A stretch of DNA of 64,000 nucleotides from a virus (IMGVR_UViG_3300010167_000860:7964-71963), one strand, 5' to 3'; positions 3,401 through 38,542 are shown, counted from the stretch's first letter. Made by a program: numbers and translations. Notes: generated from the sequence alone by a model not told the origin.

Positions 3401-3571
3401 ATAAAAAAAATAATAATTCAGTCAAATATAAAATTTTCTGTTAGATTACATAATCAATTAAAATAATAAAATAGAAATTAAACTTTCCTAAATCCTTTAT
3501 TTTAAATTCAAGTATCAAATTTATTCTTTTACTTTTGTAATGAATTTAATTAATATTTTATGAAAAAAAGT

Positions 3572-3603
3572 AAAAAGAAAGGAGGGAAATTTGCCCCCTC
3601 CTT
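3572..3603 (-). terminator. Intrinsic terminator after terL
   Basis: GGAGGG/CCCTCC stem followed by a U-rich tract on the minus strand, just after the terL stop. Confidence 0.65.
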
Positions 3604-3620
3604 ATGAGAATTTTTTTACC

Positions 3621-5981
3621 CTAATCTGCTGTAATATAACTTTTGATTTTATATTTTTCATCATACTTTCTTAATTTCTCTAACGTATTATCATTCATAT
3701 TATTATTAAACCTGTCATCATAATTTTGAGTAAAGAATTTATCATTACCTAAATAGTTTTTATCATTAGCCCTATTTTCCTTTTCTCCTGTTCCTCCTCC
3801 ATAAAGTATTAATCTTTCTTCCCTAAGAAGCATTAAAGCTCCTAAAGCATCGTGCCTATCAGTGTTTAAATCATTACTAAATGCAGCTAATTCCTTTAAT
3901 AATGCCCTATATACTATTCTTCTCAGGTTAGGTATTGTTTCTTGTATTTCCTGTGCTTCTCCCTCCTCTGCATTTTTTGATGTAAGGATTTCCACTGGTT
4001 TAAGGAGAAAGTCTCTGATATGTCTTCTGTACATATTTTTGACAGGTTCTGTGGCTGTAAATCCATAGGAACTACTTCCCAATGTTTCTTTGTAAGCATG
4101 TTTATCTTTTAAATATTCTAAAGTTTTTGATAAATATCTAAGTGAGTTATATTTTTGCATATAACTGTAAAATCCCTTTTTATTATTTTCATAACAGCAT
4201 TGTGCATTATAATACATTAATAACCTTCTGGCTATTTCAAAAGTATCATCTGAAAAAGTATATCTTCCTGTATATTCTGCTACTATATCATCTGTTCATA
4301 AATCTAATACATATACAGATAATAAAGACATAGATTGTGCTGGTCCATCAATTATATCCACAGGGTCTAATCCTGCTATATACCTTCCCCAAGGTATTTC
4401 TCCTGAACTATCATTCTCAGGATGATTTTTAATATATACTGCCCCTTCAGCTTTATTATTATTCAAAGGAAATTCCTGAATAGCTTTTACATCTAATGAA
4501 GGTTCAAAAATTACCTTACTATCCCTTATAATAAGATTGCCCTGATACATTCTATTTAATATGTCAGGATTATTATCTATTTCAAATACCCTGTCATTTA
4601 AATCTGCTACAGGGTATATAGTTCCATCTCTTCTCATTATAGCTTCCTGAAGGGTGAATGCTATCTCTGCCCTTCTTTGGGTAAGCTCCATTGGATTATT
4701 AGAATTATACTTTATAAAATATCTTTCTTTTAATTCATACACCAAAGCTCCTATAACATCGGATACCCCATCTTTATTAAAAAAAGGTCTGTAATTTACA
4801 TATCCAGGAAAAAAGAAAACAGTGTTTTTTGCTCCTAAACTGCCTCTATCATATACATTAGGAATACCATAAACATTCTTAGTTTCAGGAGAATATATCA
4901 TATCTAAAGCCCCTTCAAATGAATTTCCAGGAGTTCCTCCGGTCCCTGTACAGAAGGCTGTACCAAATACTATAGCCCCTTCTTGAACATTAGGCATAGA
5001 AGTAGCAAACCACTCATTAAATTTAGGAAATTTACCAAATTCTTCTGCAAACAATAAATCATTCCTCCTCCCTCTTGTTTTTCCAGGGTCATCTGCTATA
5101 GATATACCATTTATAGCATTTTGAGGACCTCTTTTATTATTATCAGAATCTACTCATCCACATACCCAGGACATATTAGAAGGGGATTTTTGAGAACAGG
5201 TAGTAGGAAACTGTGTGGTCTTAGATAGATGATCTAACCCAAATTCAAACTTTCCTAATATACCATCTTCTCCTGATAAATACACCTTATCACTTGCAGT
5301 AACTAATCCTACCCTATTATTACTCCTTTCCTTATCTATACCTATTGTAAATAATTTAAGCAGCATTGAAGCTAGGGAGTAGGACTTGGATTTAATCCTA
5401 GAAGATATTTCAGCACCATGAGAACCATTTTCCCTTGCTTGCTCTATATAATGAAATCTTCAATAAACTCCTTCCCAACATTCTGGTAAATCATCTTTTC
5501 TAAACCCAACTTTTTTACCTGTTTTGGTTTCAATAGTTGTGTTTAATTTCATTAATAAGTAATTAAGATAAAAATACATATCTCCTGTTATTCACTCTCC
5601 ATCACTCTCCCTTACCATACCATTTCAACACCTATCTAACTCCTGCCTAAACCATTTCATATATTCAGATTTAGGAGAAGTATTAAGTTTTAGTTTAGTA
5701 TAACAACCATACTCTTTAAAATGTAAAGCAGCAGGTCTAAAGAAATCCATATTTTCGAGATAATGAGGCATAGTTAAATTAACAATTATTCTTCCAGTTT
5801 TGTCACGTGGAAGCTCACAAGCTCTTTTTCTCTTTAGAGAAATTAAATTTTGAATAAAAGGAACATTGTTGATATAACCTAAAAAATCTTCTCAACATTC
5901 TTTTGGCATACTATCTCTAAGTTCTTCAGTAATTTTAGTTTGAAATTTATTAGTAGGAATAATTTCATTTATATTTTTCAT
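3621..5981 (-). CDS. terL: Terminase large subunit (786 aa; TGA=Trp)
   Basis: Track ORFs 3621..4217, 4296..5054 and 5154..5366 share one frame with ATG 5981. Read-through restores crAss TerL motifs ELDRC-W-NGMVRESDGE-W-ITGDMYFYLNY and DL-W-TDDIVAEYTGR; Walker B-like LFAEEFG; RNase H-like YIAGLDP; ends in TAG. Confidence 0.92.
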
Positions 5982-30931: not shown

Positions 30932-31921
30932 ATGTTCTCTAAAGGTTCTTTATCATTAAGTTTACCAGAGTATATCTCTGATGAGGATATTCTAAATCAT
31001 TATTTTGGAATATCAAGGATTCCCTGTTTAATTAGCAGCCCTTTGAGGGTAGATAATAATCCTTCTTTTAAATTATTTAGAGCAAATAATCTTAGAGTTT
31101 ATTATAAGGATTTTAGTAATAATGATAAAGGGAATATTATTGATTTACTCAAAAAATACTTTAACCTTACTTATGAAAGTGTAATATTAAAATTATATAA
31201 TGAAAGTAAGAATATAGGATATAAATACAAGATAATCAATGATAAACTTAAAAGTAAAACCAGGGAACACAGTATAACTTACTCTGACATAAAAGTTAAG
31301 ACAAGAAAATGGAAAAAGTATGATATAGAATACTGGGAAAGTTATGGGATAAATTTACATACTCTAGAGTTTGGAAAGGTTTATCCTATAACTACTATTT
31401 TTGTATATAAATATGATAACACAGGCTGTTTAAAAGAATATAAAATAAATGCTGATAAATATGCCTATGTATTTGTTGAAAATAAAGATGGTATTGAAAC
31501 ATACAAAATATATCAGCCCTACAGTAAAGCCTTTAAATGGAGAAATAAGCATAATGGAAGTGTATGGAGTTTATGGACACAGTTACCTGAAAAAGGTGAT
31601 AGACTTATTATAACTTCATCAGTGAAAGATGCTTTATGTATTATAGCTAATACAGACATTCCATCTGTAAGCCTTCAATCAGAAAGTACTTTACCTAAAA
31701 AACATATAATACAGCAATTAAAAGATAGATTTGAGAAGATATATGTATTATATGATAATGACAATACAGGCATAGAGTGTGGAAGGAAACTGGCTAATGA
31801 ATATGGGTTAATATATACAGAAATACCTCAGAATTTAAGTACTAAAGATCCGTCAGACAGTTATAAACTTTATGGTAAAGAGAAGTTTATTGAAATTATA
31901 AATAAATTATTAATTAGTTAA
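30932..31921 (+). CDS. DNA primase (Toprim)
   Basis: SSPLRVDNNPSF, YKDFS, ITSSVKD, LYDNDNTG, KDPSD. Confidence 0.85.
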   Translation: MFSKGSLSLSLPEYISDEDILNHYFGISRIPCLISSPLRVDNNPSFKLFRANNLRVYYKDFSNNDKGNIIDLLKKYFNLTYESVILKLYNESKNIGYKYKIINDKLKSKTREHSITYSDIKVKTRKWKKYDIEYWESYGINLHTLEFGKVYPITTIFVYKYDNTGCLKEYKINADKYAYVFVENKDGIETYKIYQPYSKAFKWRNKHNGSVWSLWTQLPEKGDRLIITSSVKDALCIIANTDIPSVSLQSESTLPKKHIIQQLKDRFEKIYVLYDNDNTGIECGRKLANEYGLIYTEIPQNLSTKDPSDSYKLYGKEKFIEIINKLLIS

Positions 31922-31933
31922 TTAAAAGTAAAA

Positions 31934-32641
31934 ATGGAAGAACTAGTAAGTATAAAAAGAAATATTTTAGCACATTCTCCTTCAACAGGGAAAGTGATTT
32001 TTGAAACTATTGCAAGAACAGTAGGAGAATTAAAAGAAGATCTTAACAGACATGGGTTTAATTTAGATGTAAATTTTAAAGAGGATGACAGAGGGCATAA
32101 AATTGAGCATACATATAAAATAACTGAAGGACAAACCCAGGTTACATTTGAAGGTGATAATGCTTTATTACCTACTAATATAATGTATGAAGGAAGAGTA
32201 ACTAATGATTTACTTATCCTTGTAACTCCTATAAAGATTGACCATGGAATATTACCTTATAAAGAGATTAAAAGAACTCTTAAAGAAATATTTGAGGCAG
32301 TCCCTTCATTTAAAGAGCATATAAGAGATAATAGAGGTAATTGGACACAGTTTACTACTGAACAGTTAAACCAGATTCTTGATGAGTATAATAACAACTG
32401 GTCAAGTGGTAATGTAAAAGAAGAATCTTGTGAAGAACCTTGTAGAGAGTGTTCTGAAGGACACAGAGAAAAGAAAAATAAATTCTCACAAGAATATGCT
32501 ATGGAACTTATTACTGAAGGTATAAGTCTAATTAATACTGGTATTTCAGTTCTAAGTTCTCTTCTAAATCTTAAATCTATTATTCATATTTCTAATAAAG
32601 ATCTTGGAAAAATAATAGAAGAAATAAATGGAAAACAGTGA
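31934..32641 (+). CDS. Putative ubiquitin-like (beta-grasp) domain protein with C-terminal extension
   Basis: TVGELKEDL...LLPTN...LLILVTPIKIDHG; first gene of the E2-JAB-E1 cassette. Confidence 0.45.
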   Translation: MEELVSIKRNILAHSPSTGKVIFETIARTVGELKEDLNRHGFNLDVNFKEDDRGHKIEHTYKITEGQTQVTFEGDNALLPTNIMYEGRVTNDLLILVTPIKIDHGILPYKEIKRTLKEIFEAVPSFKEHIRDNRGNWTQFTTEQLNQILDEYNNNWSSGNVKEESCEEPCRECSEGHREKKNKFSQEYAMELITEGISLINTGISVLSSLLNLKSIIHISNKDLGKIIEEINGKQ

Positions 32642-33788
32642 TAATCTGTATGATATTTATATAAATAACCTGAAAGAGGGAAAATATACTATTCCCCTCT
32701 TTTGGGATATTTATAAAACTACTGTAAGGAAATATGGAGAAGATAAAGTTGATTTATTAATTACTCCTAAAAAAGAAAAGTTTGAATATGTGTGGGATAA
32801 TCTTGAGGATATAAAAACTTTTGATATACTTTGTAAATATTTTTTATGTAATAATACAGAAGTTAATTCACAAACACTTGATAACTCAGATTTCATAATT
32901 AATAACCATGGGATTATGTACATGAAAATTATTATCTATTTCCCTAAAGTAGAAATATCTAATAGTGAAGGGAGAAAACATAAAATCTATGATATTTATG
33001 TTAAGTTCACATTTGATGATAACTGTGCTTTAAAAAGGAAACCTGGTTTTATGAGATCCACTTATACTCCTGAAGAATTTAATATAAATTATGCACATTC
33101 TCACATCAGTACTTCTTATGTATCAAGTTTAAAAAATAGAGGAATTCTTTGGGGAGAAGCCTGTTTTGGAGGGGGTACTACTATAAACAGCCTTTTAACA
33201 CAGTGGCAGTGTAATAGTCATAAATTATACATTGAGCAGTGGATGCAGGTACTTATTACAATAGATATATTTTTAGAATGGGAAAGTTTAGAAGGAGGTC
33301 CTTATGTTAAAATGGAATATATACAGAGGGATAGATCTCTTAATTATCCCCGTGATTTAAGTAATTATATTAGAATATATGAAGATACTATTAAATGTAT
33401 ATTAGAGAAAATATTAAATGAATATATTTCAATAAAAATATGCTCTGATAAAAAGGGATTTTTGTATATAGATTTAGTTAAAGATAGGGATGGTTTAGAA
33501 GATAGATTTCTCAAAGAGTGGTTAAAAATACATAATTTTATCCCTGAGGCTTTTATATGCAGGAAATATAAAGATAGGCTTAGTACCAGGTATTATAATA
33601 CTATTAGGGATACTTCAACAAATGTGTTGGATTTAGAATTATTTCAATTTAAAAATAAGCCTGTTAAATTAAAATTTATAAAAAATCAGGAGGAAAATAT
33701 GGACAAATACTGTATTATTCCTATGATTTTAAATGGGTTTTTAGAAAATCTTAAAAATAAGTTAAATGATAGAAGAAAAGTTTTTTAA
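32628..33788 (+). CDS. Prokaryotic E2 (UBC)-like protein
   Basis: YAHSHI...WGEACFGGGT (His...Cys pattern) and ESLEGGPY; adjacent to JAB and E1. Confidence 0.55.
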   Translation: MENSDNLYDIYINNLKEGKYTIPLFWDIYKTTVRKYGEDKVDLLITPKKEKFEYVWDNLEDIKTFDILCKYFLCNNTEVNSQTLDNSDFIINNHGIMYMKIIIYFPKVEISNSEGRKHKIYDIYVKFTFDDNCALKRKPGFMRSTYTPEEFNINYAHSHISTSYVSSLKNRGILWGEACFGGGTTINSLLTQWQCNSHKLYIEQWMQVLITIDIFLEWESLEGGPYVKMEYIQRDRSLNYPRDLSNYIRIYEDTIKCILEKILNEYISIKICSDKKGFLYIDLVKDRDGLEDRFLKEWLKIHNFIPEAFICRKYKDRLSTRYYNTIRDTSTNVLDLELFQFKNKPVKLKFIKNQEENMDKYCIIPMILNGFLENLKNKLNDRRKVF

Positions 33789-34917
33789 AAAGAGTTTACC
33801 TGAGTTAATTGATAAAAATGAAGTGTTTACATTATATATACCTAAAACTGTTTCAAATAAAATACAGTATGTCTGTGATGAAATTCCTAATAATGAATGG
33901 TCAGGAATACTGTTTTATAAATATGAAGGCAGTCTTTTAGATATAAATAATTTAAGAGCAGAGGTTGTTGATATATTACCTTTGGATATAGGTTCAGCAG
34001 GATTTACTTCTAATGAATTTCCTAAGGAATACAGTGAGTTTTTATTGAAAAATCCTCATATGATGGAGTATAATCATGGAATAGTGCATTCACATAATAA
34101 TATGGGAGTATTTTTCTCAGGTACTGATAATGAAGCATTAGCTAAAATTTCTGACCAATATGCGGGGTTAATATCTCTTATAGTGAATAATAAAGGGGAA
34201 TATTGTGCTAAATTAGGAGTATATATAAAAGCAGACAGGGTAGATAATATTACTGTAAGGGATATAGATTATAAAGATAAAGTTTTATCTGAAAATGTGA
34301 GTGTAGGTTATGTAAAAGTTTATAATGCTAAAATTGAAAAAGAAGTTATTAATGTAGATCTTAGTTTTCAAAATAGAATATATAATCTTAGAGTTAATTC
34401 TGAGTTACAGAATGCAAATAAAGAAAGAAATCTTTTTAATCAGGGGGGGTTTTATAATAATCCTGATACTCCTTCAAGATGGATAAATCCCAAAGTAGAT
34501 GATAAATTACCTGTACCTCTTAAAAATAAAAAAGAAGATAGTATAGATATATGTACAGAAGATGTAGATTATATAAATTTTATATGTAAAGTTATATCTT
34601 TTAATCCTTTTCTTGATTCTGATTGTTATGATTTTGAAGAGGATTTTAATATAGCAATAAGCGCTTATAAGGGAAAAGATGTTTTAAATGAAGGTGTAAT
34701 AAATAATATTAACTCTGTTCTGAGATTAATTCTTTATAATAATACAGCAAATCCCTTTGAGATAAAGGATATGTGTAAATATCTTATACTTGAACTTGAA
34801 GAATTAGAGCTAAAAAGGATATATAAAGGAAATGTTAAAGAACTTATTAAATCATTGATAACTACTTTTAGTAGGTATTTAGAGAATTATAATGCGCCAA
34901 TAAACTTTAGTGAATAG
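33766..34917 (+). CDS. JAB/MPN metalloprotease
   Basis: NNEWSG (catalytic Glu) and GIVHSHNNMGVFFSGTD = HxH-x7-S-xx-D. Confidence 0.8.
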   Translation: MIEEKFFKKSLPELIDKNEVFTLYIPKTVSNKIQYVCDEIPNNEWSGILFYKYEGSLLDINNLRAEVVDILPLDIGSAGFTSNEFPKEYSEFLLKNPHMMEYNHGIVHSHNNMGVFFSGTDNEALAKISDQYAGLISLIVNNKGEYCAKLGVYIKADRVDNITVRDIDYKDKVLSENVSVGYVKVYNAKIEKEVINVDLSFQNRIYNLRVNSELQNANKERNLFNQGGFYNNPDTPSRWINPKVDDKLPVPLKNKKEDSIDICTEDVDYINFICKVISFNPFLDSDCYDFEEDFNIAISAYKGKDVLNEGVINNINSVLRLILYNNTANPFEIKDMCKYLILELEELELKRIYKGNVKELIKSLITTFSRYLENYNAPINFSE

Positions 34918-36064
34918 TATGGATTTAGATGAATTAATAAGAAGTGTAATAGGAGAAAATACAGCAGCACCCTCTTATAATCTTGGAGTTGAATCTGTAA
35001 ATCCTGTAGAAATTGAAGAAACTATAGAAACTATTGCTGAAGTTGTTGAAGAGGAACACAGTATAATTAATATATCTGATGAAGAACTTGAGAATAGGAT
35101 AAGGGAAATTAACTCTACTATACCTGTAAACACTGTTCCTGAAAATACTGTAGAAGAATTAGAAGATAATACTGAAGAGGAAGAAGAGGAAGAAGATTAT
35201 TATGATTATCCAGAAGAGGAAGAGGAAGAAGAAGAAACAGTAGAAACAATAAATCCTGAAGTTGATGAGTATAATATACCATTAGCAAGTACAGACGTTA
35301 TTCAAAGTATAGAAAATCAATCTCAGGAAGGAATACAGGATAATTTAATAAGATTTAGCAGTGCTTCATGGTTTGATGTTGTGCAGGAACAGGAAATAAT
35401 ATTAGCAGGATTAGGGGGTATAGGTGGATATGTGAGCTTCCTGTTAAGCAGATTAAACCCTAAGAACCTTATTTTATTTGATAATGATCTGTTTGAAGCT
35501 CATAATTTAGGGGGCCAGCTCTGTAGAACTACTGATATTCAAGAATATAAAGTCCGTGTAGCATCAAATATAGCTCAAGATTTTAGCAGTTATTATGATA
35601 TATCTGATATTAGTAGAAAATATGTTGAAGGGGAAATTACAAGGAATATTATGATATGTGGATTTGATAATATGCAAGCAAGGAAAGTATTCTTTGAAAG
35701 TTGGCTTAAAAGAGTAAGATTAGTAGGAGCAGAAGAAGCTAAGAAATGTCTTTATTTAGATGGGAGACTATTAGCTGAAACCTTTCAAATATTCTGTGTA
35801 AGAGGAGATAGAGAGGATTATATAGAGAATTATCAAACCAGACATTTATTTGGAGAAGGAGTTGCTGTAGGTACTACCTGTACTTTAAAGCAGACCTCCC
35901 ATATAGCTATGATGATAGCAAGTAAGATGGTAACATACCTTGTTAATCATTGTAATAATATAAACCCTGATAATTTTCCAAGAAGGTATCCTTACTATAC
36001 TCACTATGATGCAACTTTTAATATAATAGAGGAGGTGTACGAAGATGTTAACAAAGTATATTAA
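34910..36064 (+). CDS. ThiF/E1-like activating enzyme with long acidic N-terminus
   Basis: LAGLGGIGG, FDND, HNLGGQ, CGFDNMQARK, YLDGRL, TCTLKQTSH. Confidence 0.88.
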   Translation: MNSMDLDELIRSVIGENTAAPSYNLGVESVNPVEIEETIETIAEVVEEEHSIINISDEELENRIREINSTIPVNTVPENTVEELEDNTEEEEEEEDYYDYPEEEEEEEETVETINPEVDEYNIPLASTDVIQSIENQSQEGIQDNLIRFSSASWFDVVQEQEIILAGLGGIGGYVSFLLSRLNPKNLILFDNDLFEAHNLGGQLCRTTDIQEYKVRVASNIAQDFSSYYDISDISRKYVEGEITRNIMICGFDNMQARKVFFESWLKRVRLVGAEEAKKCLYLDGRLLAETFQIFCVRGDREDYIENYQTRHLFGEGVAVGTTCTLKQTSHIAMMIASKMVTYLVNHCNNINPDNFPRRYPYYTHYDATFNIIEEVYEDVNKVY

Positions 36065-37045
36065 TATCTATGCTAATGTAGATCTTACAGCCAGCTATGG
36101 TACAAATAGAATTGTTCATAAATGTGATTATACTAAATTACTCACATTAAAGGATATTACTTACTCAGATATATTAAATAATACTGATAAATTTTACACT
36201 CTAATTGCTAAAACTATTGAGAATCTTTTTATAGGAAGTAGGGAACTGGCTGTTTCTAGAAAAACTTTTGTTGATGTATTTATGTACAGTCAGTTACTTG
36301 TAAAAATAAATGTAAAAGGTTCTAAATATATTATAACAAGAGGTATTATTATGGATAATAATTTTAATATCCTTTTAGCTATTATGACTAGGAAGAATAT
36401 TTTAGAAGGTATTGATGCAAGTAATAGAAGACTTCTTTGGCAGAGACTCATAGATATAAAAGATTTAATAGTTTTTGTGAACAGAAGTTTTTATACAGTA
36501 AAAAGAACTAAATCTGATATAGTAATGAACTTTATGAAAAATGTAATAATGAATAGTATGGAGAATAATATTGAAGTGAGAGTAGTAGATAAAATAAGTT
36601 GTTTTACTGTACCTGAGGTTTATACTACAGATATTGGGAATCCTATCTCTATTGATATTATTAAAGAAATAAATGTTGTATGAAAAATGTAAATTTAAAA
36701 AAAGAAATAGAAGAAAATTTAGATAGATTGGGGAGGAATTGTTGTGTAAACTGTTTACCTCCTGAAATTTATGAAGAATTTCTTCATCATAATCCAAGAG
36801 AACTTTTTGATATATATGCTAAAAGATGTGCTTTATTCTTTAACAAAGATTCCAATAAGCATATAAAGAAAGAACCTGAGTTATGGTATATAAATACTCC
36901 TTGTCTAAGTGTAAGAAAGTATAATGAAAATCCTAAGAAAATTCCAAGATGGAAATTAAGGTTTTATCCTTTCTTTAGAAGTCAGGCAGAAGCAATAGCC
37001 ACAGTAATATTTCTAAGAGATATTTATAAAAAGGCAAATGAATAG
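36045..37045 (+). CDS. Two hypothetical proteins (36045-36683, 36680-37045)
   Basis: ORF track; ATGA-coupled. Confidence 0.55.
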
Positions 37046-37502
37046 GAAGATAGCTAATGCTGCCCAGATTAAAGTAGATAATATAAAGTTTCAATCAAAA
37101 CTTGAAGCTAAGTGTTATACTTTACTAAAAGAAGCAGGTCTGAAATTTGATTATGAAAAGTATATAATTACTCTATTTGAAGGTTTCAGACCTACTTTTA
37201 AAATATATGAAGTGAAAAATAAGGTATTCAAAGAAAAGAAAAGTAAAATAGGCTCTCCTCTTATAAGAGATATTACTTATACCCCAGATTTTGTATATAT
37301 AGATGATAAAAGATATATTATTATAGAAACTAAGGGATTTAAGAATGATACTTATCCTTATAAGAAGAAATTGTTATTTAGAGTGCTGGAGAATAAGAAA
37401 AAAGACAGGGATGTATATTTCTTTGAACCTAATAATATCACCTCAATAAAGGCTACTATAGATACTATAAAGGATATTCTAAGTAGTGATGATATTAATT
37501 AA
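37038..37502 (+). CDS. PD-(D/E)xK endonuclease (endonuclease I / resolvase-like)
   Basis: FQSKLE...YTPDF...IIETKG. Confidence 0.75.
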   Translation: MNRKIANAAQIKVDNIKFQSKLEAKCYTLLKEAGLKFDYEKYIITLFEGFRPTFKIYEVKNKVFKEKKSKIGSPLIRDITYTPDFVYIDDKRYIIIETKGFKNDTYPYKKKLLFRVLENKKKDRDVYFFEPNNITSIKATIDTIKDILSSDDIN

Positions 37503-37513
37503 TAAAATATATT

Positions 37514-38542
37514 ATGAAGAGTTTTAAAGAATTGTGTTTAGAAATAACAGAAAATCAGTATAGAGAATTAAATGCTATAAATTATTCCTTATTATCAAGA
37601 TATAGTCAGAATGGAGTAAGAGCTTTAAAAGAGGATATTTCTCTTGAAGGTCCTGGAATAACCTTTGGAAGTATGGTAGATACCCTTATAACTAATAAGG
37701 AGGCTTTTAATGATCTTTATTATGTATCTGATGTATTTGTTACCCCAGGTATAAAACAGATTGTAGATTATATTGTATCTACAACTAGTTATCAATGTGA
37801 TATTAATAGTATTCCTGAAGAGGTTTTAATTTATGCAATAGAAGCCTGTGATTGGCAACCTAACTGGAAAATTGAGACTAAAATTAAAAAGGTATTATCA
37901 GAAGGAAGGGATTACTATAAAGCAAGGATAGCAGCTATAAATAAAATTCCTGTCAGTAATTTTGATTTTAAAGAGGCTATGGAACTGTGTAAAGAAATTA
38001 CTCAGGGAATGTGGACTAAAAATATATTTGGGATTAAGGGCAAAGAAGGGGTAGAATTTCTATACCAGCAAAAGATGAAATATACCCATGAGATGTGGAA
38101 TTTATACGGACCATCAGGTAAATTTATAGATTTAAAGGCAATGATAGACATTATTATAGTTGATCATAATAACAAGATTATTATTCCTTTTGACATAAAA
38201 ACTACAAGCAGCAGTCTGTATAATTTTAAGAAATCCTTCTATAAGTACAGATATGATATACAAGCGCAGTTATATAATTATATCCTTGAGAAAAAGTGTG
38301 TTAATGATGATTATTTTAAAGATTTTAGTTTGTTAGATATAAGGTTTATTGTAGCAAGCAGGGAAGATATGAAAGTAGTATCTTTTATAGATGATTCTGA
38401 ACAGGGTGTTTATGAAAATAATTTTAAACATTGGTCAGATTTATTAAAAGAGATAGTATTTCTTAAAACTAATGGTATGGAGTATGAATATGATGCTTAT
38501 ATAAATGAAGGTTTAATTAAATTAAATGCAAATGACAGATAA
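37514..38542 (+). CDS. PD-(D/E)xK exonuclease (RecE/Exo VIII-like)
   Basis: YSLLS, FGSMVD, KAMIDII, DIKTT, YDIQAQLY. Confidence 0.75.
   Translation: MKSFKELCLEITENQYRELNAINYSLLSRYSQNGVRALKEDISLEGPGITFGSMVDTLITNKEAFNDLYYVSDVFVTPGIKQIVDYIVSTTSYQCDINSIPEEVLIYAIEACDWQPNWKIETKIKKVLSEGRDYYKARIAAINKIPVSNFDFKEAMELCKEITQGMWTKNIFGIKGKEGVEFLYQQKMKYTHEMWNLYGPSGKFIDLKAMIDIIIVDHNNKIIIPFDIKTTSSSLYNFKKSFYKYRYDIQAQLYNYILEKKCVNDDYFKDFSLLDIRFIVASREDMKVVSFIDDSEQGVYENNFKHWSDLLKEIVFLKTNGMEYEYDAYINEGLIKLNANDR

Follow-up and report, generated by a model that had tools for sequence, protein, structure and literature searches.

A probable phage-borne module for the activation and conjugation of a ubiquitin-like protein in a crAss-like phage from termite gut

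Five coupled genes in the replication region

The window considered here is a 64,000-nucleotide stretch of viral DNA (IMGVR_UViG_3300010167_000860:7964-71963), and its subject is a cassette of five coupled genes on the plus strand, designated orf1 to orf5, which is interpreted below as a probable phage-borne module for the activation and conjugation of a ubiquitin-like protein (Ubl). The whole virus record spans 105.8 kb, with a CheckV completeness of 92% and a G+C content of approximately 28%, and the source phage is placed, by gene content and synteny, as a crAss-like relative from termite gut. Plus-strand positions 30932-38542 form a single closely packed run of genes, which leads from a primase located upstream of orf1 (phrog_12622, E=2.9e-53) through to nucleases. 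The first gene of the cassette, orf1 (31934..32641, 235 amino acids), encodes a putative Ubl precursor (pro-Ubl) composed of an N-terminal beta-grasp domain, a three-helix module, a disordered linker and C-terminal helices. The product of orf2 (32628..33788, 386 amino acids) is similar to a Ubl-conjugating enzyme (E2), presenting a UBC-like core with a helical insert and a poorly modelled C-terminal domain. These are followed by orf3 (33766..34917, 383 amino acids), coding for a JAMM/JAB metalloprotease with the JAB domain at residues ~15-160 and a conserved C-terminal helical domain, and by orf4 (34910..36064, 384 amino acids), coding for a minimal adenylating enzyme of the Ubl-activating (E1) type, in which one adenylation domain comes after a variable acidic region. 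The fifth coupled gene, orf5 (36045..36683, 212 amino acids), is an open reading frame (ORF) conserved directly 3' of the E1 gene.

From orf1 to the resolvase, neighbouring genes overlap by 14, 23, 8, 20, 4 and 8 nucleotides. The initial annotation had recognized a cassette of four coupled genes between the primase and the nucleases. The coupling of these four, given by the first three overlaps, is as it described, and so is the primase on one side; a fifth gene had however been missed, and it is orf5 together with orf6 (36680-37045, plus strand) that precede the nucleases, namely a Holliday-junction resolvase-like nuclease and then a PD-(D/E)XK exonuclease, both on the plus strand and within the same gene run. 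In a sequence scan, promoter-like and terminator-like sites in the cassette region were no commoner than in shuffled controls.

The arrangement recurs in other phages. A scan of IMG/VR with the E1 protein yielded 44 related loci, which together with crAss001 make up a set of 45 (single loci are cited below by number). The order primase-orf1-orf2-orf3-orf4 is kept in 43 of them, both exceptions being cut at contig ends, and this recurrence indicates that the cassette is more than a chance association. In crAss001 the genes from primase through E1 correspond to gp80-gp76 and the five-gene block to gp79 to gp75, of which just two bear names in the public labels, gp77 ('metalloprotease') and gp76 ('thiamine biosynthesis protein ThiF'). 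The same cassette is present outside Crassvirales, in the Flavobacterium phage FpV4 (NC_041872.1, 62787-67889), as gp53-gp50, the Ubl precursor being matched by hhalign with a probability of 97.9 and the JAB protein with one of 99.9; 28 records related to FpV4, likewise outside Crassvirales, also bear it. In 44 of the 45 loci the E1 gene is directly followed by an ORF of 214-278 amino acids (L025, which departs from the others at this point, was excluded from the orf5 alignment), a hidden Markov model built from these ORFs matches orf5 at 23.8 bits, and the alignment reveals a common motif, YYGGxGxILD..NPL, with no invariant Cys or His. Together these observations indicate that the conserved block consists of five genes and not four; no Pfam, PHROG or PADLOC family was found for orf5.

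Folds and invariant residues of the encoded proteins

The motifs pointed out in the initial annotation (a JAB motif in orf3, an E1 GxGxxG and cysteine in orf4, an E2-like His...Cys in orf2 and a beta-grasp domain ending in KIDHG in orf1) are all present where it had placed them, and the JAB and E1 identities that it deduced appear solid, judging from invariant motifs and profile matches at the sequence level. The beta-grasp fold that it had anticipated for orf1 is likewise borne out by the fold check, both in the predicted topology and in the matches to the ubiquitin superfamily. The AlphaFold2 (AF2) model of orf1, built on 36 homologues, has a mean predicted local distance difference test score (pLDDT) of 77 and displays at residues 9-101 the beta-beta-alpha-beta-beta-beta order of a beta-grasp domain, followed by a dip in confidence; three helices of the extension (residues 109-122, 124-134 and 142-156) are then modelled at pLDDT >90, with a disordered linker and C-terminal helices beyond. 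The best Foldseek rows against the PDB all belong to the ubiquitin superfamily, with probabilities of 0.96-1.0 but E-values of at least 6e-3, as do 49 of the 50 VIA-align rows, and the closest structures are those of protein modifiers (FAT10, ISG15, ubiquitin) rather than of ThiS or MoaD. By sequence, orf1 matches no Pfam family and is weakly related to phrog_15560.

The ubiquitin-like domain proper (residues 1-105, 31934..32248) ends at Gly105 (...KIDHG, codon 32246-32248), which is the sole invariant glycine in the 36 homologues (consensus KKIKSG). It is positioned four residues past the last strand of the model (residues 93-101), and 130 residues lie beyond it. Structure alignment places residues 1-75 of ubiquitin on residues 9-103 of the orf1 model and residues 80-154 of ISG15 on residues 10-104, so that Gly105 falls within one residue of Gly76 of ubiquitin; it is the predicted site both of JAMM cleavage and of adenylation by the E1. 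At the equivalent point FpV4 has a di-glycine, KSGG. The extension (residues 106-235, 32249..32641) comprises a helical module with the motif GKNFTxCKTxDLIxL, a low-complexity linker and a C-terminal helix; Pfam and PDB searches found no family for it, and an ESM Atlas feature search was uninformative.

The two parts of orf1 are not always fused. At least six clusters of shorter relatives, of 90-91 residues, stop one or two codons past the conserved glycine, with the ends ...KSGKF, ...KSGIY and ...KSGN. In L013 (a 98-kb contig; 3548-4477) the Ubl ORF terminates as KKIKSGKF-stop and the extension constitutes an ORF of its own, containing MTRTEAY..., while the gap after the Ubl ORF holds a decayed remnant resembling a homing-endonuclease gene. 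In L070 (403-1873), the short Ubl gene is found between HNH_3/NUMOD4 genes, the homing-endonuclease gene being intact, and in L071 the Ubl and the extension overlap in different frames, in which case an assembly error is possible. Ubl and extension are thus able to occur as separate polypeptides, and these natural splits coincide exactly with the predicted protease cut. A variant of another kind is seen in L015 (3615-4553), where the extension of a 312-amino-acid orf1 homologue harbours the C-terminal domain of ribosomal protein L7/L12 (PF00542, E=1.6e-12), an insertion that recalls the eukaryotic ubiquitin-ribosomal protein fusions.

In orf2, the UBC-like core with its helical insert occupies residues ~18-236 (32679-33335). 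The AF2 model has a mean pLDDT of 68, with residues 98-230 of the core at 75-96 in ten-residue blocks, and this confident part matches UBC, UEV and RWD structures, including the bacterial Cap2 (7to3) and chain 9eav_D of the BubCD-BubB-BubA complex. When orf2 was compared with the ESM Atlas, its own viral family was returned first and then, among others, a Prok-E2_D cluster (TM 0.47, root-mean-square deviation 4.2 A, 119 residues); altogether, three structure comparisons besides the Foldseek search of the PDB point to a UBC-like core. The stretch Y155-A-H157-S158-H159 (33090-33104), followed by Cys179 (codon 33162-33164) and then by G181 and G183, is the candidate E2 active site (33090..33164). 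H157, H159 and Cys179 are invariant in 33 homologues and are located, in the AF2 model, in a loop that connects the last core strand (residues 140-146) to the helix at 185-195, which would correspond to the place where UBC enzymes bear HPN...Cys. The family is large, with 3122 relatives of the core at E<=0.001 among representatives clustered at 50% identity; a profile search of 1.84 billion representatives with the core gave its own family only among the 150 matches listed and no bridge to named families, a search of BFVD matched only uncharacterised crAss-like proteins, and an ESM Atlas feature search was uninformative. A metal site of two histidines and two cysteines was also considered for orf2 and judged unlikely, since the window's own protein has Leu in place of Cys209.

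The JAMM zinc motif of orf3, HSHNNMGVFFSGTD (34087..34128), provides H108, H110, S118 and D121, and the catalytic Glu44 is encoded at 33895-33897; these five residues, which compose the full E...HxH-x7-S-x2-D signature, are invariant in 29 homologues. The PADLOC JAB model matches residues 15-156 (E=1.4e-5), and Pfam Prok-JAB scores 15.7 bits (E=0.014), under its cut-off of 25. The family profile matches Pyrococcus JAMM1 (5lda, E=0.013), a SAMP-processing enzyme, as well as CSN5 and an Rpn11-like protein. The conserved C-terminal half, of ~200 residues, is helical and carries no assignment.

The single adenylation domain of orf4 is ~240 residues long (residues ~146-384, 35345-36061) and is recognized by Pfam ThiF (PF00899) with 48.7 bits for a cut-off of 28.1, and by phrog_15670 with E=3.7e-40. 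The orf4 family profile matches 63 PDB chains of the E1 superfamily, with E-values in the range of 1e-10 to 1e-3 and a best value of 9e-11; MccB and UBA5 are found near 1e-10, followed by PaaA, UBA6, UBA1, ThiF, TcdA, the NEDD8 E1, Cap2, MoeB and BubCD. The GxGxxG motif, G167-L-G-G-I-G172 (LAGLGGIGG, 35402-35428), and the candidate thioester cysteine, Cys324 (codon 35879..35881, within GTTCTLKQT, 35870-35896), are both invariant in 33 homologues, in which R148 (RFSxAxW), G167, G169, G170, D191, D193, N199, K214, D253 (ICGFDNM) and C324 are all conserved without exception. Cys324 is situated 71 residues past D253 of the invariant DN motif; in ThiF and UBA5 the corresponding spacing is ~57 and ~67 residues. 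Modelling of a complex between the E1 (residues 140-384) and the Ubl (residues 1-105) gave scores of 0.11, 0.33 and 0.11, which are evidence neither way. The N-terminal region of orf4 contains an acidic low-complexity run, EEEEEEEDYYDYPEEEEEEEE, at 35120-35290, and varies among homologues in length and sequence, with L017, L021, L026 and L027 carrying a different conserved insert. The start of orf4 is ambiguous, since it may be GTG at 34910, which gives the 8-nucleotide overlap with orf3, or ATG at 34919, one base past the orf3 stop.

A proposed conjugation pathway and competing explanations

It seems rather probable that the five genes, expressed as a co-translated set, constitute a phage-borne module for Ubl activation and conjugation. 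All chemical steps of the pathway that we infer, like the existence of its targets, are predictions. The product of orf1 would be made as a precursor, in which the ubiquitin-fold domain ending at Gly105 is fused to the helical C-terminal module. The JAMM protease encoded by orf3 would cut after Gly105, freeing the C-terminal module and exposing the glycine carboxylate; such a cleavage is suggested by the position of the glycine, by the natural split genes and by the precedent of Bub systems. Using ATP, the minimal E1 encoded by orf4 would adenylate Gly105 and then hold the Ubl on Cys324 as a thioester, from which the Ubl would be handed to Cys179 of orf2. The orf2 protein may then attach the Ubl to lysines of host or phage proteins while the phage replicates, possibly with the help of its own C-terminal domain or of orf5, either of which is a candidate specificity factor, and the orf3 protease could undo the attachment. 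Cleavage of the precursor would also release the helical module in amounts equal to those of the Ubl. The eukaryotic ubiquitin-ribosomal protein fusions, too, yield a second protein in equal amounts when they are cut. A wider version of this proposal has about even chances of being correct, namely that crAss-like and FpV4-type phages run a complete thioester Ubl pathway of their own, with a minimal E1 and an E2 unrecognisable by sequence, which would tag host or phage proteins during replication and whose cut pro-Ubl would deliver a second protein in equal measure.

Several observations weigh against a conjugation pathway, of which orf2 is the weak link. The UBC fold that had been expected of orf2 at the outset was not refuted, as the core matches UBC, UEV and RWD structures, whereas a sequence link to E2 enzymes and a Foldseek match in the PDB are both lacking: a Foldseek search of the PDB with the orf2 model gave nothing at E<=0.001, the top rows being unrelated, and the orf2 sequence had no E2 match at E<=0.1 in Pfam and PADLOC (including UQ_con, Prok-E2_A to E and BilB). 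Similarly, Pfam applied to all 33 homologues found no E2 family at E<=1, a PDB profile search with the orf2 family found nothing, and hhalign against a Prok-E2_D alignment of 11 Bacteroidota proteins returned a probability of 1.3. In orf4, the invariant Gly202 occupies the position of the arginine in the NLxRQ motif of ThiF, MoeB and UBA5, and the chemistry of the enzyme may differ because of this replacement; the assignment of Cys324 to the crossover loop is a prediction from spacing alone. Furthermore, in its fused forms orf1 could be a larger protein with the beta-grasp as one of its stable domains, and no E3 was identified.

One alternative to conjugation is that the Ubl is a sulfur carrier of the ThiS/MoaD type. 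The JAMM protease would then expose Gly105, the E1 would adenylate it, and a host donor would supply the sulfur for a thiocarboxylate that thiolates a nucleotide, a tRNA, a DNA base or a cofactor, with orf2 being the sulfur-using enzyme. Mec+ exposes the glycine of CysO in this manner, and QbsD that of QbsE. Nevertheless, rhodanese (PF00581), cysteine desulfurase (PF00266) and PP-loop (PF01171) families are absent from the 105.8-kb phage record while control genomes were positive, and this want of sulfur-transfer genes weakens the explanation, even if host enzymes could serve. Moreover, the modifier-like character of the best Ubl matches and the UBC-like core of orf2 with its invariant His/Cys pair are not what a sulfur carrier would lead one to expect, and no sulfur carrier is known that is fused to a large conserved C-terminal module; this explanation is accordingly regarded as unlikely. 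Still less likely, in our view, is a role mainly in counter-defence, in which the cassette would tag nothing on its own account and would instead disturb host immunity based on Ubl systems (Bil, type II CBASS, Bub), for instance by means of a JAMM protease stripping the host Ubl off phage proteins, or by soaking up host enzymes. Potential opponents do occur in Bacteroidales hosts: a Bil-like system has been reported in a Bacteroides host (PMC12135933), and of 401 Bacteroidota genomes sampled, 9 contain Prok-E2_D genes, as does B. thetaiotaomicron. As Bil tags phage tail proteins (PMC11601596), a phage deconjugase would pay. For such a purpose a deconjugase alone would suffice, yet Ubl, E1, E2-like protein and JAMM protease with intact catalytic residues are found together in 43 of the 45 loci. 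The phage proteins are also far from the Bil models, since those of PADLOC for BilA, BilB and BilC match none of orf1, orf2 and orf3 (orf3 matching the generic JAB model only) and that for BilD matches orf4 at only 24 bits, over residues 162-261 of the Rossmann part. In addition, counter-defence overlaps with the conjugation pathway, given that tagging by the phage could itself serve this end.

It is also conceivable, but very improbable, that the genes are neighbours with no common Ubl pathway, the beta-grasp protein being a structural or replication accessory, orf2 an unrelated Cys/His enzyme or metal binder, and orf4 an enzyme that adenylates a peptide, like MccB and PaaA, or a nucleotide, like TcdA. 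That the best E1 sequence matches in the PDB are the peptide-modifying MccB and PaaA, that TcdA also scores, and that orf4 lacks the NLxRQ arginine would all suit such an arrangement, as would the middling fold evidence for orf2. Against it, the combination of an invariant glycine at the position of the C-terminal glycine of ubiquitin with an intact JAMM and an E1 whose cysteine never varies, in genes that are strictly linked and coupled in translation, is the hallmark of Ubl activation; the natural splits of the gene lie exactly behind the glycine, and the would-be metal site of orf2 has lost its Cys209 in the protein of the window.

Relation to described systems and additional observations

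With respect to the conjugation pathway proposed here, the nearest described counterparts are of bacterial origin. The Bil systems (BilA-BilB-BilC-BilD), described by Hor et al. (bioRxiv 10.1101/2023.09.04.556158) and by Chambers et al. (10.1101/2023.09.26.559546) according to the summary in PMC11601596, are bacterial anti-phage defences, whereas the phage cassette sits in the replication module of a lytic-type phage. They comprise the same four roles (Ubl, E2, JAB peptidase and E1), encoded by separate genes and with no E3 gene (PMC11601596). In the cassette as in Bil, cysteines are located at the predicted E1 and E2 active sites, candidate positions in the phage proteins that suggest thioester chemistry. 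BilD is defined by an architecture of tandem domains and a mobile cysteine domain (PMC11601596), a layout that orf4, with its one adenylation domain, does not have. In addition, the phage Ubl bears a conserved extension of 130 residues and the E2-like protein, with 386 residues, includes an extra domain.

In Type I Bub (formerly 6E.1; BubAB, BubCD, BubE), a Ubl precursor is cut by the JAB domain of BubCD immediately past a conserved glycine (Ye et al. 2024, PMC11601596); the minimal E1 and the predicted precursor processing of the phage cassette resemble this system. However, Bub contains Ubl-E2 and JAB-E1 fusions, while the phage has separate genes and a Ubl joined to an unrelated helical module. 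The Type I Bub E1 and E2 are devoid of the cysteines and form oxyesters through Tyr and Ser (PMC11601596), whereas Cys324 and Cys179 are invariant in the phage families, and this conservation argues for thioester rather than oxyester chemistry. The DUF6527 serine protease BubE was found neither in the 105.8-kb phage record nor in orf5, and Bub is bacterial, with regulators that tie it to defence. In type II CBASS, where a JAB protein (Cap3) accompanies Cap2, the latter is an E2-E1 fusion whose substrate for conjugation is the C-terminus of a CD-NTase and not a beta-grasp Ubl; the phage cassette has no CD-NTase. With ThiF/ThiS, MoeB/MoaD and CysO/Mec+ the cassette has in common an E1 of a single domain, a beta-grasp protein with a C-terminal glycine and, as a prediction for the phage, the removal of an extension by a JAMM protease, but these systems need a sulfur donor and user, none of which is detectable in the phage, and they have no UBC-like partner. 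The cassette thus belongs to neither of the described operon families, Bil and Bub, and is a phage-borne variant of the prokaryotic Ubl systems.

In the crAss-like genome map given in the supplement of Yutin et al. 2021 (PMC7886860), the region reads as primase, two uncharacterised genes, 'MPN, metalloprotease', 'ThiF family' and one uncharacterised gene; only two of the five genes are named, and in the searchable text no Ubl pathway is proposed. The searchable literature on crAss together with ThiF, ubiquitin or JAB likewise yielded no account of the pathway in phages. If the proposal is correct, the cassette would be the first full Ubl cascade encoded by prokaryotic viruses and, next to Bil and Bub, a third architecture. 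The Ubl interpretation also corrects the 'thiamine biosynthesis' label of public phage records. Ubl conjugation in bacteria has so far been described as anti-phage defence (Bil, type II CBASS and probably Bub), while here the machinery stands on the phage side, fixed within the replication module of a very large clade; crAss-like phages are among the commonest viruses of animal guts. Should the cassette conjugate, it would raise the questions of which proteins are tagged, whether host Ubl immunity is countered and how minimal E1/E2 pairs evolved. Since cultured members exist (crAss001, DAC15/DAC17, Kehishuvirus and Kolpuevirus isolates, and the FpV4 family), the pathway is directly testable.

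Some minor features of the loci complete the picture. In FpV4, a uracil-DNA glycosylase gene separates the primase from the pro-Ubl. The cassette is also found on very long contigs of bacterial metagenome-assembled genomes (MAGs), namely L047 (JBMNLZ010000002.1, a 640-kb contig of a Bacilli MAG, at 16-29 kb) and L054 (DASYBV010000020.1, a 374-kb contig of a Puia MAG), which may represent integrated crAss-like prophages or chimeric contigs; among the orf2 relatives seen, that of L047 is the closest, with 28% identity over residues 6-380. As for stop codons in the window, there is no in-frame TGA within any of the five cassette genes; the orf1 stop, TGA, abuts a TAA (32639-32644), so that reading through it would lengthen the protein by a single residue, and orf5 also stops at a TGA (36681-36683).

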